This document shows positions 3,099 through 6,470 of a DNA stretch of 64,000 bases, piece by piece; position 1 is the stretch's first letter; each line of letters opens with the position of its first letter. The stretch is from Escherichia phage ALITA. The position numbers and the translations under genes are program-made. Location: the sequence record PP359570; one strand, given 5' to 3'. The notes under the pieces were generated by a model that did not search any database, had not been told where the DNA came from, and saw only the letters and a program-made list of their open reading frames with translations.

Positions 3099-3209
3099 AT
3101 GTCTACAGAAATTATTTTTGGCTTATCTGTTTTTATTGCTATTGTATCTTTTGTATGCGGTTATACACTAGGTTACAGATCAAGAAAAAATATTGTAAAA
3201 ACTAGTTGA
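3099..3209 (+). CDS. small hydrophobic peptide (36 aa, single predicted transmembrane helix)
   Basis: ATG 3099 preceded by aagga SD; translation MSTEIIFGLSVFIAIVSFVCGYTLGYRSRKNIVKTS; below the 60-aa cutoff of the ORF track. Confidence 0.35.
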   Translation: MSTEIIFGLSVFIAIVSFVCGYTLGYRSRKNIVKTS

Positions 3210-3235
3210 CAACATAGCTAGTTATTTGCTAAGAT
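3206..3235 (+). promoter_or_regulatory. sigma70-like promoter (-35 TTGACA 3206-3211, -10 TAAGAT 3230-3235)
   Basis: Consensus -35, 18-bp spacer; upstream of ORF 3266. Confidence 0.5.
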
Positions 3236-3539: not shown

Positions 3540-3615
3540 GGTTCCATAGCTCACTGACGAGAGCGCACACCTCATAAGTGTCGAGGGCAGGGATTGTAAC
3601 CCTGGGGAACCACCA
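3540..3615 (+). tRNA. tRNA-Met/Ile2 (anticodon CAT)
   Basis: Cloverleaf: acceptor GGTTCCA/GGGAACC, D-stem GCTC/GAGC, anticodon loop CTCATAA, T-stem CAGGG/CCCTG with atypical T-loop ATTGTAA, 3' ACCA encoded. Confidence 0.75.
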
Positions 3616-3646
3616 TTTAAAAGGAGGTGCTATGCATCTCCTATAT

Positions 3647-3732
3647 GCAAGTGTGGTGGAATTGGTGATACACATTGTGCTTAAAACGCAACGCTTAAAT
3701 GCTTGAGGGTTCGAATCCCTCCACTTGCACCA
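3647..3732 (+). tRNA. tRNA-Leu (anticodon TAA), type II
   Basis: Acceptor GCAAGTG/CACTTGC, anticodon loop CTTAAAA, 13-nt variable arm, T-loop GGGTTCGAATCCC, CCA encoded. Confidence 0.8.
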
Positions 3733-3734
3733 AC

Positions 3735-3840
3735 GCCTAGTAGGGTATTTGGTAATTCCGAGGCCATCAAAGCCTGAAAAATATGTTAGACCGTTTTGTC
3801 TAACTAAATACGAAATATGGTTCGATTCCATAACTAGGCT
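3735..3840 (+). tRNA. atypical long tRNA-like gene (about 106 nt), candidate anticodon TCA (would read UGA); Sec/Ser-like architecture
   Basis: Perfect 7-bp acceptor GCCTAGT/ACTAGGC, 6-bp D-stem with 4-nt loop, anticodon arm AGGC-CATCAAA-GCCT, long variable hairpin GTTAGAC-CGTTTT-GTCTAAC, canonical T-arm TATGG-TTCGATT-CCATA; no encoded CCA. Confidence 0.4.
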
Positions 3841-3875
3841 CCCGATTTAAATAGTAATTTTTTAATAAAAATATC

Positions 3876-3904
3876 TTGACATTTACTTAGTTTTTTGTTA
3901 TAGT
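3876..3904 (+). promoter_or_regulatory. sigma70-like promoter (-35 TTGACA 3876-3881, -10 TATAGT 3899-3904)
   Basis: Consensus hexamers, 17-bp spacer, TG upstream of -10; precedes tRNA at 3916. Confidence 0.55.
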
Positions 3905-3915
3905 CATTATGAAAA

Positions 3916-3997
3916 CGGGGTGTATCTCACCTGACTTCTAATCAGGCGTTAACCGAGTAATTGGAGTATGCAGGTTCGAATCCTGTCACCCCGGCCA
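3916..3997 (+). tRNA. tRNA-Arg-like (anticodon TCT), atypical: no canonical D-arm, 23-nt extra region
   Basis: Perfect acceptor CGGGGTG/CACCCCG, anticodon arm CCTGA-CTTCTAA-TCAGG, T-arm GCAGG-TTCGAAT-CCTGT, GCCA 3' end; only 7 nt between acceptor and anticodon stem. Confidence 0.45.
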
Positions 3998-4015
3998 AAA
4001 AGTTTTAAAAACTAC

Positions 4016-4044
4016 TTGACAAGCAAGATAGTTTTATGTTAGAT
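4016..4044 (+). promoter_or_regulatory. sigma70-like promoter (-35 TTGACA 4016-4021, -10 TTAGAT 4039-4044)
   Basis: Consensus -35, 17-bp spacer; precedes tRNA-Ser. Confidence 0.5.
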
Positions 4045-4060
4045 TTAAAGTATGGTAACA

Positions 4061-4150
4061 GGAAGGTAGGGCGCAGCGGTGCGCAACCAGGTTTGAACCC
4101 TGGCCCATTGTAGCGATACGGTGATGGTTCGACTCCATTATCTTCCTCCA
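4061..4150 (+). tRNA. tRNA-Ser (anticodon TGA), type II
   Basis: Acceptor GGAAGGT/ATCTTCC, anticodon arm CCAGG-TTTGAAC-CCTGG, long variable arm, T-loop GGTTCGACTCC, CCA encoded. Confidence 0.75.
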
Positions 4151-4168
4151 AATTCGCTTAGGAGCTTT

Positions 4169-4321
4169 ATGAATTATAAAACTATTGGACAGGTTGTTAC
4201 CGGAGTTAAGATTGTAAATAATAAAGTTGTTTATGAGTATTCTAATCTTCAACAATCTGAAGATGGTAAGAATATTTGTATGGTAAAAGCAGAACAAAAA
4301 GATTCCGGTTGTTTTGAATAA
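4169..4321 (+). CDS. hypothetical small protein (50 aa)
   Basis: ATG 4169 after SD aggag 4160-4164, immediately downstream of tRNA-Ser; ORF-track ORF 4121..4321 starts inside the tRNA so the internal ATG is preferred. Confidence 0.4.
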   Translation: MNYKTIGQVVTGVKIVNNKVVYEYSNLQQSEDGKNICMVKAEQKDSGCFE

Positions 4322-4329
4322 TTAAAAAC

Positions 4330-4415
4330 GGTAGATTGGTGAAATGGTAGCCACAACAGTTTGCTAAACTGTCGTCGGAAACGGCGTGTAGGTTCAAGTC
4401 CTACATCTACCGCCA
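4330..4415 (+). tRNA. tRNA-Ser (anticodon GCT), type II
   Basis: Acceptor GGTAGAT/ATCTACC, anticodon arm ACAGT-TTGCTAA-ACTGT, variable arm, T-arm GTAGG-TTCAAGT-CCTAC, CCA encoded. Confidence 0.8.
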
Positions 4416-4541
4416 AGTTATCTTTAATGTAGCTTGTAATCTTACTTTAGCAGAGTAAATCTTCGGCAAGTGGCAGTAACCACTTTACCGATAGCCCATA
4501 GTCAAGTGCCGCAAACACTGGCTATTTTAAAGATAATTTAT

Positions 4542-4617
4542 ACATCGTTAGCTTAGTTGGTAGAGCAAGGGGCTTTTAACTCCAAGGTCGAAGGTTCGAA
4601 TCCTTCACGATGTACCA
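4542..4617 (+). tRNA. tRNA-Lys (anticodon TTT)
   Basis: Acceptor ACATCGT/ACGATGT, D-arm GCTT-AGTTGGTA-GAGC, anticodon loop CTTTTAA, T-arm GAAGG-TTCGAAT-CCTTC, CCA encoded. Confidence 0.8.
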
Positions 4618-4622
4618 AACAC

Positions 4623-4709
4623 GTAGGTATCGCATAGCGGCAATTGCTGGAGACTGTAAATCTCTTGCCCTTCGGGGCTTCGTTGGTTCGAGTCCAACTA
4701 CCTGCACCA
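4623..4709 (+). tRNA. tRNA-Tyr (anticodon GTA), type II
   Basis: Acceptor GTAGGTA/TACCTGC, anticodon arm GGAGA-CTGTAAA-TCTCT, variable arm TGCCCTTCGGGGCTTC, T-arm GTTGG-TTCGAGT-CCAAC, CCA encoded. Confidence 0.75.
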
Positions 4710-4716
4710 AATTAAA

Positions 4717-4801
4717 GATGGATTGGCCTAGTGGTTGGGCGACGGACTGTTAATCCGTGAACGAAAGTTCTAGCAAGGTTCAAATCCTTGATCCATCGCC
4801 A
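4717..4801 (+). tRNA. tRNA-Asn (anticodon GTT) with unusually long variable arm
   Basis: Acceptor GATGGAT/ATCCATC, anticodon arm ACGGA-CTGTTAA-TCCGT, variable hairpin GAAC-GAAA-GTTC, T-arm CAAGG-TTCAAAT-CCTTG, CCA encoded. Confidence 0.6.
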
Positions 4802-4805
4802 AATA

Positions 4806-4873
4806 GTGCTTGTAGAGTTAATAGAAACCTCTAGAATTTTCTAGAATTGTAGGTATCAAATCCTACCAAGCAA
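4806..4873 (+). pseudogene. tRNA-like remnant (acceptor and T-arm-like pairing, no anticodon arm, no CCA)
   Basis: GTGCTTG/CAAGCAA acceptor-like pairing and GTAGG-TATCAAAT-CCTAC hairpin; internal region contains palindrome TCTAGAATTTTCTAGA instead of an anticodon arm. Confidence 0.25.
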
Positions 4874-4880
4874 ATATTTT

Positions 4881-4955
4881 GCTCCTATCGTATAACGGCT
4901 ATTACGGTTGCCTTGTAAGCAACTTATCAGGGTTCGAGTCCTTGTGGGAGCACCA
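4881..4955 (+). tRNA. tRNA-Thr (anticodon TGT)
   Basis: Acceptor GCTCCTA/TGGGAGC, anticodon arm GTTGC-CTTGTAA-GCAAC, T-loop GGGTTCGAGTCC, CCA encoded. Confidence 0.75.
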
Positions 4956-4977
4956 ATTTAACTCTAAAGGAGTGTAT

Positions 4978-5301
4978 GTGACAGAAAAAGAGTTAGAGAA
5001 ATATTTTAATATCAATGTTTTCGATGGTTTTGATGATATTGAAGATGTTGAAAGATATTATGAAGTAGAGTTAGATAAGGATAACATTGTAATTCTTTCT
5101 GCCACTTATGATTGTGCATATTATGAAGGCGAATCTCACGTTTATTTCTATGATATGAAAACATCTTTGTTTTATGAAGTACACGCATATCATTGTTCTT
5201 GTTATGGCTTAGAAGGTCAGTGGGAACCTGAAGAAATAGGTGATTTGAGCTTTACGGTTGCATATCTAAACAGACGTGGTGCATCTACTATTTTAAAATA
5301 A
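4978..5301 (+). CDS. hypothetical protein (acidic, Cys/His-containing)
   Basis: ORF-track ORF 4879..5301 begins inside tRNA-Thr; in-frame GTG 4978 follows SD aaggag 4967-4972 and is the likely start. Confidence 0.5.
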   Translation: MTEKELEKYFNINVFDGFDDIEDVERYYEVELDKDNIVILSATYDCAYYEGESHVYFYDMKTSLFYEVHAYHCSCYGLEGQWEPEEIGDLSFTVAYLNRRGASTILK

Positions 5302-5315
5302 ATATTAAAAGCCTC

Positions 5316-5345
5316 TTGACAAAGGGGCTAATAATATGTTAGAGT
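5316..5345 (+). promoter_or_regulatory. sigma70-like promoter (-35 TTGACA 5316-5321, -10 TAGAGT 5340-5345)
   Basis: Consensus -35, 18-bp spacer; precedes tRNA-Gly. Confidence 0.5.
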
Positions 5346-5356
5346 AATATTGTTAA

Positions 5357-5431
5357 GCGGGTATAGTGTTAATGGTAGCATATGAGGTTTCCACCCTCCA
5401 GGTGCAGGTTCAAGTCCTGTTACTCGCTCCA
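5357..5431 (+). tRNA. tRNA-Gly (anticodon TCC)
   Basis: Acceptor GCGGGTA/TACTCGC, anticodon loop TTTCCAC, T-arm GCAGG-TTCAAGT-CCTGT, CCA encoded; resembles bacterial tRNA-Gly(UCC). Confidence 0.8.
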
Positions 5432-5530
5432 AGATTATTTAAATGGAATCGCTAGAGAAAATTTCTCTTTTCGCTCATGGTTTTCTCCTTCAAACTCTAG
5501 CGGTTCTTTTTAAGTGATTTTTAGTTTTAT

Positions 5531-5605
5531 TGGAGATTAGCCTAGTGGGAAGGCAACGGCCTTTGAAGTCGTGATGACTAGGTTCGATTCCTAGATCTCC
5601 AGCCA
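5531..5605 (+). tRNA. tRNA-Gln (anticodon TTG)
   Basis: 5' U1 with A72 (TGGAGAT/ATCTCCA) as in bacterial tRNA-Gln, anticodon arm ACGGC-CTTTGAA-GTCGT, T-arm CTAGG-TTCGATT-CCTAG, GCCA end. Confidence 0.8.
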
Positions 5606-5647
5606 ATTAATTGCATAGCATGAGTATTTCTCATTGGTTAAAAGGAG

Positions 5648-6013
5648 ATGCAAGTGAATTGTGAACATTGTGGTAGTGAGTTTACTTTGATAAAAGGTCA
5701 TGGTGGACAAAACAGATCATACTGTTACACTTGTATTCCAGAAGGTTTAGATAAACAAGTACGCACAAGATTACATCAAGAACTTAGAAGAGAGCGATCT
5801 CATAAGATGAAACTTGATTTAGGTTGCAAAGTGTGTGGTTATGCTAAATGTGCAGTAGCACTAGAATGGCATCACCCAGAGGACGATAAGAAACACGATC
5901 CATCTAATGCAATCAAAAGATCTTGGTCTGCTTACTTAGAAGAGACTGAAAAGTGTATCTTACTATGTGCCAATTGTCATAGAGAAGTACATGCTGGTCT
6001 TATACAGGTTTAA
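5648..6013 (+). CDS. HNH homing endonuclease (free-standing, inside tRNA array)
   Basis: 121-aa ORF; CxxC...CxxC zinc-binding pairs and HNH motif WHHPEDDKKHDP...LLCANCHREVH; alternative start GTG 5654 has better SD spacing. Confidence 0.85.
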   Translation: MQVNCEHCGSEFTLIKGHGGQNRSYCYTCIPEGLDKQVRTRLHQELRRERSHKMKLDLGCKVCGYAKCAVALEWHHPEDDKKHDPSNAIKRSWSAYLEETEKCILLCANCHREVHAGLIQV

Positions 6014-6014
6014 T

Positions 6015-6090
6015 CAGTGCGTAGCGCAGTTGGTAGCGTGGGAGCCTTGGACGCTTCAGGTCGCAGGTTCGAGTCCTGCCGCACTGACCA
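6015..6090 (+). tRNA. tRNA-Pro (anticodon TGG)
   Basis: Perfect acceptor CAGTGCG/CGCACTG, anticodon arm GGAGC-CTTGGAC-GCTTC, T-arm GCAGG-TTCGAGT-CCTGC, CCA encoded; starts 2 nt after HNH stop. Confidence 0.8.
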
Positions 6091-6095
6091 AATTT

Positions 6096-6170
6096 GCAGA
6101 GATAGCTGAGACGGATTAGTGCTACCCTGAAAAGGTAGAAAGGATGGATCGTTACCATCTCTCTGCACCA
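6096..6170 (+). tRNA. tRNA-Phe (anticodon GAA)
   Basis: Acceptor GCAGAGA/TCTCTGC, anticodon arm CTACC-CTGAAAA-GGTAG, T-arm GATGG-ATCGTTA-CCATC (non-canonical T-loop), CCA encoded. Confidence 0.7.
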
Positions 6171-6247
6171 GATAATACCATCCAAGGAGAATACTTGGTT
6201 AACTGTCAATAGCACATTGAGGCTTCTTACAGTGGTGTACTTATTAT

Positions 6248-6332
6248 GGCTAAGTGGTGGAATGGTATACACGATACGCTTAGAACGTATTGCCCCAAGG
6301 GATTGTGAGTTCGAGTCTCACCTTAGCTACCA
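6248..6332 (+). tRNA. tRNA-Leu (anticodon TAG), type II
   Basis: Acceptor GGCTAAG/CTTAGCT, anticodon arm ATACG-CTTAGAA-CGTAT, variable hairpin CCC-CAA-GGG, T-arm GTGAG-TTCGAGT-CTCAC, CCA encoded. Confidence 0.75.
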
Positions 6333-6347
6333 AATTATTACAGGTTT

Positions 6348-6426
6348 CGCGGGATAGAGGAGTCTGGTCGTCCTCGCCAGTTTCATATGCTGGAGATCGT
6401 AGGTTCAAATCCTACTCCCGTTACCA
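6348..6426 (+). tRNA. tRNA-Met/Ile2 (anticodon CAT), second copy
   Basis: Acceptor CGCGGGA/TCCCGTT (terminal mismatch), D-arm GAGG/CCTC, anticodon arm CCAGT-TTCATAT-GCTGG, T-arm GTAGG-TTCAAAT-CCTAC, CCA encoded. Confidence 0.6.
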
Positions 6427-6470
6427 ATAAATACCTCCCTTCTGGTGTAATGATTAAATTACATTGACAC

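Follow-up and report, generated by a model that had tools for sequence, protein, structure and literature searches.

What is a tRNA-like gene with an apparent UCA anticodon, which would decode the stop codon UGA, doing in a standard-code phage? The question is raised by positions 3735–3840 (+ strand) of a 64,000-nucleotide (nt) stretch of Escherichia phage ALITA (sequence record PP359570; this whole stretch is referred to as the window). A sequence-only reading of the window had described an atypical 106-nt tRNA-like gene at these positions and had proposed an opal suppressor or a selenocysteine-like tRNA. Comparative analysis indicates, with high confidence, that the element genuinely belongs to a family of irregular class-II-like tRNAs restricted to phages, that it is not a selenocysteine tRNA (tRNASec) and that it is not required to decode any gene. 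Its function is a matter of more tentative interpretation, in which low-efficiency opal suppression and a non-decoding role are weighed below.

Structure of the element

The window derives from a Justusliebigvirus coliphage (phi92-like, Stephanstirmvirinae). The region around the element is 99.7% identical to Escherichia phage inny and 97–99.5% identical to ~30 other Justusliebigvirus phages. A tRNA cluster extends from 3540 to 6650 and contains 15 genes according to ARAGORN and 14 according to Rfam. The element at 3735–3840 received no ARAGORN call and had no Rfam match at gathering thresholds. On the + strand it forms a 106-nt cloverleaf from the following segments:

3735–3741 (+): acceptor stem, 5′ strand GCCTAGT, pairing with 3833–3839; compensatory changes in three of seven pairs across the family
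3742–3743 (+): linker AG; A replaces the usual U at position 8, with A8 invariant and position 9 A or G in 21 of 21 members
3744–3759 (+): D arm GGTATT-TGGT-AATTCC, a 6-position stem (5 base pairs (bp) and a U.U mismatch) with a 4-nt loop; three stem pairs covary
3760 (+): spacer G, in a G.G mismatch with 3776
3761–3775 (+): anticodon arm AGGC-CATCAAA-GCCT, a 4-bp stem with a 7-nt loop; TCA at 3767–3769 and A33 at 3766
3777–3784 (+): A-rich 5′ flank of the variable region, AAAAATAT; GAAAA(A)UA is kept in all groups
3785–3804 (+): variable-arm hairpin GTTAGAC-CGTTTT-GTCTAAC, 7 bp in both minimum-free-energy and centroid folds
3805–3815 (+): 3′ flank of the variable region, TAAATACGAAA, holding the conserved AAUAC
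3816–3832 (+): T arm TATGG-TTCGATT-CCATA; the stem covaries, the T loop is canonical and C56 covaries with the D loop
3833–3839 (+): acceptor stem, 3′ strand ACTAGGC, seven perfect pairs with 3735–3741
3840 (+): discriminator T; U in all UCA- and NCC-type members, A in the UUU type
3841–3843 (+): 3′ trailer CCC, at the place where relatives encode CCA

Each segment of the tRNA-like gene described in the sequence-only reading was recovered at these coordinates. The acceptor stem is fully paired, the anticodon arm has A at position 33, and the 7-bp variable hairpin, the canonical T arm and the lack of an encoded CCA (CCC follows the discriminator) are all present. A D arm with a 6-bp stem and a 4-nt loop had been reported; the loop stands, but the stem has 5 Watson–Crick pairs and a U.U mismatch, with a clean 6 bp occurring in relatives. 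When read conventionally, the 7-nt loop presents the stop-complementary anticodon U34-C35-A36 (3767–3769) followed by A37 and A38, as had been proposed. By inspection, none of the alternative registers that place a U at position 33 yields a paired stem. The predictors did not refold the region as a conventional Ser or Leu tRNA with a sense anticodon. The single-sequence fold had a z-score of −3.0 as compared to shuffled sequences. A canonical elongator has a 5-bp anticodon stem, a 7-nt loop and U33; the element has 4 bp plus a G.G mismatch, a 7-nt loop and A33.

Covariation among homologues

BLAST and pattern scans identified 21 distinct homologues in ~220 phage records, and the comparison with homologous loci envisaged in the sequence-only reading was performed on these 21 sequences using 22 pairs. 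Standard pairing was observed in 99.3% of stem cells, as compared to only 32–50% when the 3′ partners were slid by one to three columns. Double-sided changes occurred in 10 of the 22 pairs, including three in the acceptor stem, three in the D stem, two in the anticodon stem (where an A-U pair becomes G-C in relatives) and one in the T stem. The elbow also covaried: the D-loop G at 3752 and the T-loop C at 3823 form G19:C56 in 13 sequences and are replaced by U19:A56 in eight, such that D loop UGGY accompanies T loop UUCGAUU and D loop UGUC accompanies UUAGAUU. The cloverleaf thus has a 7/5 branch and a G18G19–TΨC elbow, and all four arms covary. The variable hairpin is unrelated in sequence between lineages and yet is always a hairpin, with compensatory changes discerned by eye (e.g. 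CCUCC/GGAGG, CCCCC/GGGGG, CUCUC/GAGAG, GUC/GAC, GCC/GGC and UCC/GGA); even inside Justusliebigvirus its loop differs (CGTTTT, CACTTT or CGCTTT).

This covariation rules out both a chance fold and a protein-coding reading. The latter was considered for the 35-amino-acid 'hypothetical proteins' annotated over the element in phages cardinal and SSE121, and was rejected as the substitutions are of the compensatory RNA type and not codon-based. The pattern of changes also shows selection for an L-shaped tRNA.

Distribution and anatomy of the family

Individual members are already present in GenBank with inconsistent labels. Standard finders miss the gene, or the labels clash (tRNA-Lys, tRNA-sup, tRNA-OTHER, 'hypothetical protein' or none), across the ~220 sequenced phages, which include model phages and therapy candidates (i.e. 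rV5, PVP-SE1 and phi92-like phages). No description of the element was found in the literature searched. The carriers are as follows:

Justusliebigvirus: ~30 records with the element
Henunavirus (Erwinia): Hena1 and pEp_SNUABM_01; annotated as tRNA-TERM or tRNA-sup(tca), the GenBank label of the orthologue in these Erwinia phages being tRNA-sup(tca)
Schitoviridae: UTK0002, one N4-like Salmonella phage; element unannotated
Seunavirus: PVP-SE1, SSE121, 4MG, GAP31, EspYZU15 and FENT2
Mydovirus: KB57, KPP-1, Ro1 and DP
Vequintavirus: ~125 rV5-like records; unannotated, 'tRNA-OTHER' or 'tRNA-Lys'

A few metagenomic viral contigs also bear the element. Two scaffold patterns detected no bacterial or archaeal copies in 185,579 genomes, and one metagenome scan yielded only another phi92-like contig; a bacterial origin and prophage copies were rejected on these results. 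A family covariance model built from 16 members scored members at 75–127 bits and ordinary tRNAs at ≤27 bits. The best ordinary match was the tRNA-Ser(UGA) of the window (4061–4150, +) at 27 bits; as the best match outside the family, this gene may be the evolutionary source of the scaffold. A marker consisting of the motif CTAAATAC plus the T loop was discarded, since it matched mostly unrelated tRNAs and tmRNA-like sequences.

Family members are 100–110 nt in length. All have the 7/5 acceptor/T branch and A8 instead of U8, 21 of 21 have a D arm with six stem positions per strand and a 4-nt loop, and the 4-bp anticodon stem is closed by a G facing another G. In the variable region (30–40 nt), a hairpin lies between GAAAA(A)UA and (N)NAAUACAUAG, two single-stranded flanks that hardly vary from group to group. 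In most relatives the 3′ flank reads (CU/AG/UG)AAUACAUAG; its core AUAC is kept in 21 of 21 members, contig L066 having ACAUAC and contig L067 CCAUAC. Henuna-, Seuna- and Mydovirus copies all encode CCA, as do those of UTK0002, L066 and L067; the Justusliebigvirus copies (CCC or TCA) and the rV5-like and Av-05 copies do not. Anticodon arms divide the family into groups:

Group A (this window, Henunavirus, UTK0002 and contig L066): stem RGGC/GCCY; loop CAUCAAA (AAUCAAG in L066)
Group B (all Seuna- and Mydovirus, and L067): stem AGGYC/GRCCU; loop CAUCCA, CAGCCA (4MG) or CCUCCA (Ro1)
Group C (rV5-like): stem AGGA/UCCU; canonical loop UUUUUAA (U33, anticodon UUU); A73
Group C, Av-05 type (Av-05, L065): loop UUUAUAA (UAU); U73

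Five anticodons (UCA, UCC, GCC, UUU and UAU) are thus carried on the shared body. Within group A, positions 32 and 38 and the stem differ between members, but A33-U34-C35-A36-A37 does not change; this core is kept in four independent lineages (i.e. Justusliebigvirus, Henunavirus, UTK0002 and L066) at ~70% overall identity, and the full loop CAUCAAA is invariant in three of them. Group B keeps NCC and varies at positions 33 and 34; its loop has 6 nt when the closing C-G pair is formed and 8 nt when it is not. Groups A and B both have U as the discriminator. The rV5-type copy is the only tRNA with a Lys anticodon that ARAGORN reports in two cluster stretches (L059, 13.4 kb, and L060, 2 kb), which are not whole genomes, and some submitters label it tRNA-Lys.

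These combinations resemble known identity sets. U73 with C35 and C36 matches the set for GlyRS, A73 with UUU matches that for LysRS, and U73 with C35 and A36 resembles that for CysRS. SerRS takes long-armed tRNAs with either G73 or U73, and tRNACys(UCA) is a substrate of some CysRS enzymes (PMC5389517). All four synthetase matches are leads rather than tests.

In comparison to Salmonella phage FSL SP-058, UTK0002 differs by a clean 113-nt insertion or deletion of the element between tRNA-Ser(UGA) and tRNA-Asn, and the copy in this N4-like phage is 88–89% identical to those of Erwinia myoviruses, indicating that the element moves as a tRNA-sized cassette and that phage-specific partners are not needed. 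In the GenBank record of FSL SP-058 (KC139517.1), the tRNA coordinates lie ~1.1 kb off the ARAGORN positions and one overlaps a coding sequence, which looks like an annotation error in the record.

UGA codons and recoding

The suppressor idea was tested by looking for TGA codons that bridge two coding stretches. Such bridges were sought with at least 60 codons on each side in the window and in the whole of UTK0002, and with at least 50 in the rest of the genome of phage inny, a near-identical genome used for the parts beyond the window. The scan returned nine candidates, seven of which overlap annotated genes or long open reading frames (ORFs) on the opposite strand or in another frame. At inny_226/227, the TGA is the true stop of inny_226, and the in-frame continuation of 63 codons passes through the overlapping inny_227 in a different frame. 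The inny_10/inny_11 candidate is an ordinary junction, TGA-GGAGGCAAT-ATG, in which inny_11 has its own Shine–Dalgarno site and ATG. The scan thus yielded no TGA-interrupted gene in the window, the remaining inny genome or UTK0002; the sequence-only reading had noted no in-frame TGA gene pair in the window, an observation that holds and extends to the two further genomes.

TGA is in regular use as a stop codon, ending 34 of 213 crudely called ORFs of the genome (~16%), and in-frame extensions beyond TGA stops of the window do not exceed 25 codons. In the related phage phAPEC8, which is not confirmed as lacking the element, 27% of ORFs in the first 50 kb end in TGA. TGA avoidance as the footprint of a strong suppressor was rejected, the gap between 16% and 27% being too small and confounded by gene class. 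Obligatory UGA recoding was likewise rejected. With no TGA-interrupted gene and with TGA stops in use, this is not a recoded phage, and many of its proteins would be lengthened by an efficient suppressor. The earlier proposal of an opal suppressor is not supported, given the lack of an interrupted gene, the normal use of TGA in ~16% of ORFs and the existence of sisters with other anticodons or with 6- or 8-nt loops.

Possible roles: low-efficiency suppression or a non-decoding RNA

The reading slightly favoured over a tRNA-like RNA, although at less than even probability, is that the UCA copy is a charged, low-efficiency opal suppressor within this phage-restricted family. The element would be co-transcribed with tRNA-Met and tRNA-Leu(UAA), cut by RNase P at G3735 and trimmed at its 3′ end, and CCA would be supplied in this genus by the host CCA-adding enzyme. 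It would be charged by a host synthetase, U73, C35 and the long arm making GlyRS, CysRS and SerRS the candidates. UCA with A37-A38 would then pair with UGA, and probably UGG, producing suppression of low efficiency, with activity presumably kept low by A33, the short stem and the lost CCA.

Four observations led to this preference: the canonical rV5 copy, the selected anticodon-plus-A37 core, a discriminator that tracks the anticodon and the conservation of CCA outside this genus and the rV5 group. The family body is probably translation-competent, because the rV5-like copies combine a textbook loop (UUUUUAA, U33) with A73, and because this copy is the sole Lys-anticodon tRNA in the L059 and L060 stretches and has attracted tRNA-Lys labels. 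Retention of the A33–A37 core in four lineages, while positions 32 and 38 and the stem change, argues that the anticodon is under selection, and the encoding of CCA outside this genus and group C argues that a mature acceptor end matters. The discriminator changes with the anticodon, UUU occurring with A73 and both NCC and UCA with U73. Known tRNASec-like tRNAs with U73 and UCA act as opal suppressors, and allo-tRNAs carry many anticodons on a similar body (PMC5389517). Engineered long variable arms are reported to be still translationally active (PMC7590224).

Several features weigh against suppression. A33 replaces the near-universal U33, making the element the only tRNA of the cluster without U33, and the anticodon stem has only four pairs. 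The closest sisters, in Seuna- and Mydovirus, share U73, the CAUC motif and A33 and have a 6- or 8-nt loop that permits no conventional decoding; if function is shared, decoding is doubtful. CCA has been lost in the genus (CCC or TCA) and the D stem contains a U.U mismatch. Finally, the absence of TGA-interrupted genes and the ~16% of ORFs with TGA stops count against it, as an efficient suppressor would be harmful.

Another explanation, which is possible and almost as likely since A33 and the 6- or 8-nt sister loops are hard to fit to normal decoding, is that the element is a non-decoding tRNA-like RNA whose L-shaped body and acceptor end are recognized by a host or phage factor. It might be a decoy, or a competitor that cannot be cleaved, for defence nucleases that target tRNAs or for toxins that modify them; it might also be the substrate of a non-ribosomal enzyme that uses aminoacyl-tRNA. 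The 'anticodon' loop would be a lineage-specific recognition loop that reads no codon. The invariant parts of the family are the body and the variable-domain motifs (GAAAAUA and AAUACAUAG) and not the loop, which is the least conserved functional part (UCA; UCC or GCC in a 6- or 8-nt loop; UUU; UAU). In all UCN-type copies, A33 (C33 in Ro1) would break the U-turn. No TGA-containing gene needs the element and TGA stops have not been purged. Transfer RNAs are reported to be the target of numerous bacterial defences, against which phages deploy tRNAs of their own (PMC10264068, PMC11464382, PMC11555353, PMC13056530), and allo-tRNA(UAU) species have been proposed to be inactive in translation (PMC5389517). 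Conversely, no partner protein or defence system was identified, and the only host tRNA with a UCA anticodon available for mimicry is tRNASec. The coupling of discriminator to anticodon (A73 with UUU, U73 with NCC) and the conserved CCA are as synthetase recognition predicts, and a pure decoy has no obvious need for either. The fully canonical loop of the rV5 type is a further difficulty.

A broader version of the defence idea is speculative and rather unlikely. It supposes that large virulent Enterobacterales phages share a dedicated irregular tRNA chassis, with a compact tRNASec-like D arm and a long, sequence-conserved variable domain, that moves as a cassette between unrelated phages and whose loop is repeatedly rewritten, escaping or jamming host tRNA-targeting immunity with a loop tuned to the attacked host tRNA. 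The loop versions might then be Lys UUU, Ile-like UAU, Gly-like NCC in a non-standard loop and opal UCA with A33, and this last version could, with the same reservation, be either an uncleavable mimic or a deliberate low-level reader of UGA and UGG.

Decay of the Justusliebigvirus copy, from a once functional family towards a pseudogene, is improbable. The encoded CCA has given way to CCC in the window and in inny and to TCA in PATM and cardinal, the D stem has the U.U mismatch and the changed 3′ flank of the variable region contains an extra nucleotide. Within the genus the element is 95–100% identical as compared to 97–99.7% for the surrounding kilobase, and so is no better conserved. However, every helix is still intact, and no relative has as good a variable hairpin (7 bp). 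Three distinct Justusliebigvirus sequences differ in the hairpin loop and 3′ trailer while the stems and anticodon loop are unchanged, and ~30 genomes retain the element. Phage tRNAs without an encoded CCA are matured by host enzymes, as in T4, which also counts against decay.

Relation to tRNASec and other known systems

That the element is a true tRNASec, serylated, converted by SelA and delivered by SelB to a UGA with a selenocysteine insertion sequence (SECIS), can be dismissed as very improbable. Its best Rfam match is tRNA-Sec (RF01852), which aligns end to end with permissive filters at 29.4 bits (E = 2.8e-4), and the Hena1 and UTK0002 copies reach 39 bits; every score is under the gathering score of 47. 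Similarities to bacterial tRNASec comprise the D arm of 6-bp stem and 4-nt loop (5 bp and U.U in the window), a position-26 spacer that is absent or G, the long variable arm and UCA followed by AA, with the loop CAUCAAA differing from the consensus CUUCAAA only at position 33. However, the branch is 7/5 (12 bp) and not the 8/5 (13 bp) of tRNASec, and an eighth acceptor pair is impossible because A8 faces A or C. The discriminator is U73 rather than G73, the anticodon stem has 4 bp plus a G.G mismatch instead of 6 bp, A33 is present, sister copies carry UUU, UAU or NCC anticodons, and no in-frame TGA or SECIS-type target was found in the genomes scanned. The 'selenocysteine-like' description hence applies to the D arm only.

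The closest described kind is the allo-tRNA/selC* tRNACys group (Mukai et al., Nucleic Acids Res 2017, PMC5389517), for which roles as nonsense or missense suppressors and/or regulatory RNAs have been proposed. Both sets have a tRNASec-like D arm with a long stem and a tetraloop (6 positions and 4 nt in the family, as in tRNASec and allo-tRNAs; PMC7609411, PMC5389517), a long variable arm and many anticodons on one body, including UAU and the opal UCA, and both surfaced as sub-threshold tRNA-Sec covariance-model matches (PMC5389517). The allo-tRNA discriminator is G73 or U73 (PMC5389517); that of the family is U73, with A73 in the UUU type. In contrast to the 8/4 or 9/3 branch and long anticodon stem of the allo-tRNAs (PMC5389517), all family members have a 7/5 branch and a 4-bp stem. 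A variable hairpin set between long conserved single strands, and UCN copies with A33, further distinguish the phage family. Its hosts are virulent Enterobacterales phages alone, whereas allo-tRNA/selC* genes occur in Acidobacteria, Clostridia and delta-proteobacteria.

Other systems are more distant. In classical genetics, Escherichia coli UGA suppressors were derived from glyT by changing the tRNAGly anticodon from UCC to UCA, the same one-base change that separates the NCC of the sister group from the UCA of the element. These suppressors share U73, G1:C72, C2:G71 and C35 with the element but are short class-I tRNAs with U33 and a 5-bp anticodon stem. The stable RNAs of phage T4, species 1 and 2 (rnaC and rnaD), are co-processed with tRNAs and are likewise extra small RNAs of unknown function in a phage tRNA cluster; they are not full cloverleaves and kinship was rejected, as the family covariance model gave no match and there was no similarity in sequence or structure. 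The suppressor tRNAs of crAss-like and Lak phages are of ordinary shape. They are, like the element, phage tRNAs with a stop-matching anticodon (PMC10879173, PMC12386605), and genes of the recoded phages are full of in-frame reassigned stops, whereas the phage studied here has none and uses TGA as a normal stop.

Irregular tRNASec-like tRNAs with interchangeable anticodons, so far known from soil and anaerobic bacteria, thus also occur in cultured coliphages, a setting in which deletion, expression and assay are easy. If the UCA copy is charged and decodes, it would be a natural opal suppressor in a standard-code phage and would be relevant to the origin of stop-codon reassignment; a copy that does not decode would be a candidate RNA counter-measure to tRNA-targeting defence. 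The tolerance of the scaffold for a 40-nt variable domain and different anticodons may interest genetic-code engineers.

Transcriptional context and neighbouring RNAs

The genes and promoter-like sites around the element are:

3206–3235 (+): sigma-70-like promoter, TTGACA-18-TAAGAT, 10/12 matches
3540–3615 (+): tRNA-Met, upstream of the element in the presumed unit
3647–3732 (+): tRNA-Leu(UAA), ending 2 nt before the element starts
3876–3904 (+): strong near-consensus sigma-70 promoter, TTGACA-17-TATAGT with a TG extension, just downstream of the element
3915–3997 (+): second irregular tRNA; 7-bp acceptor stem CGGGGTG/CACCCCG, no D arm, 7-nt linker TATCTCA
4016–4045 (+): strong near-consensus sigma-70 promoter, TTGACA-18-TAGATT, directly upstream of an individual tRNA gene
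6486–6566 (+): partly degenerate, unannotated tRNA-like sequence between tRNA-Met and tRNA-Ile

As the promoters at 3876–3904 and 4016–4045 lie immediately upstream of individual tRNA genes, the cluster would be transcribed as several short units. With the promoter-like site at 3206–3235 upstream and these two strong promoters after it, the element is probably the last gene of a single unit comprising a small ORF, tRNA-Met, tRNA-Leu and the element. In most relatives the element likewise follows another tRNA by 2–7 nt, with Ro1 and the rV5 group as exceptions.

Other tRNAs of the cluster are also unusual. The second irregular tRNA (3915–3997), which has the strong promoter at 3876–3904 to itself, presents the Arg anticodon UCU in the arm CCTGA-CTTCTAA-TCAGG. 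Its variable hairpin is small and its T arm normal, and CCA is encoded after G73. It scored 38.6 bits with the Rfam tRNA model and received no ARAGORN call, and relatives annotate it as tRNA-Undet or tRNA-OTHER. Like the element, tRNA-Ser(UGA) at 4061–4150 (+) has an AG linker at positions 8–9, a 5–6-bp D stem, a 4-nt D loop (GCGG) and U73 rather than G73. The tRNA-Asn(GUU) at 4717–4801 (+) is 85 nt long with a variable-arm hairpin, GAAC-GAAA-GTTC, a class-II-like form that is unusual for Asn. The degenerate sequence at 6486–6566 starts with GCCGGGTAG, as does the family, and has an anticodon arm TATGG-CTCCAAA-CCATA (CCA, a Trp-type loop) and T loop TTCGATT. Its acceptor and T stems are imperfect and its family-model match is weak (15.5 bits); it gave no ARAGORN call and no Rfam match at the gathering score.

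Just outside the window, phage inny encodes a putative RNA ligase (L053:35608–36540), the annotation of which names a best match in Klebsiella phage KB57, also a carrier of the element; this enzyme could provide tRNA repair relevant to anticodon-nuclease conflicts. In four Vequintavirinae relatives (L004:1617–1810, L040:1112–1300, L043:1083–1275 and L045:711–900), a ~190-nt non-coding region directly follows the CCA of the element. It has no Rfam family at E<0.01, is closed by a stem of ~18 bp that starts at the CCA end (e.g. AACATCTTATGTACGGG...CCCGTACATAAGATGTT) and contains the common motif CTTAAAA-C-T-CTGCA-CTA-TGGGRTGTGA; an as yet undescribed structured RNA is one possible identity, a small inverted-repeat element another.

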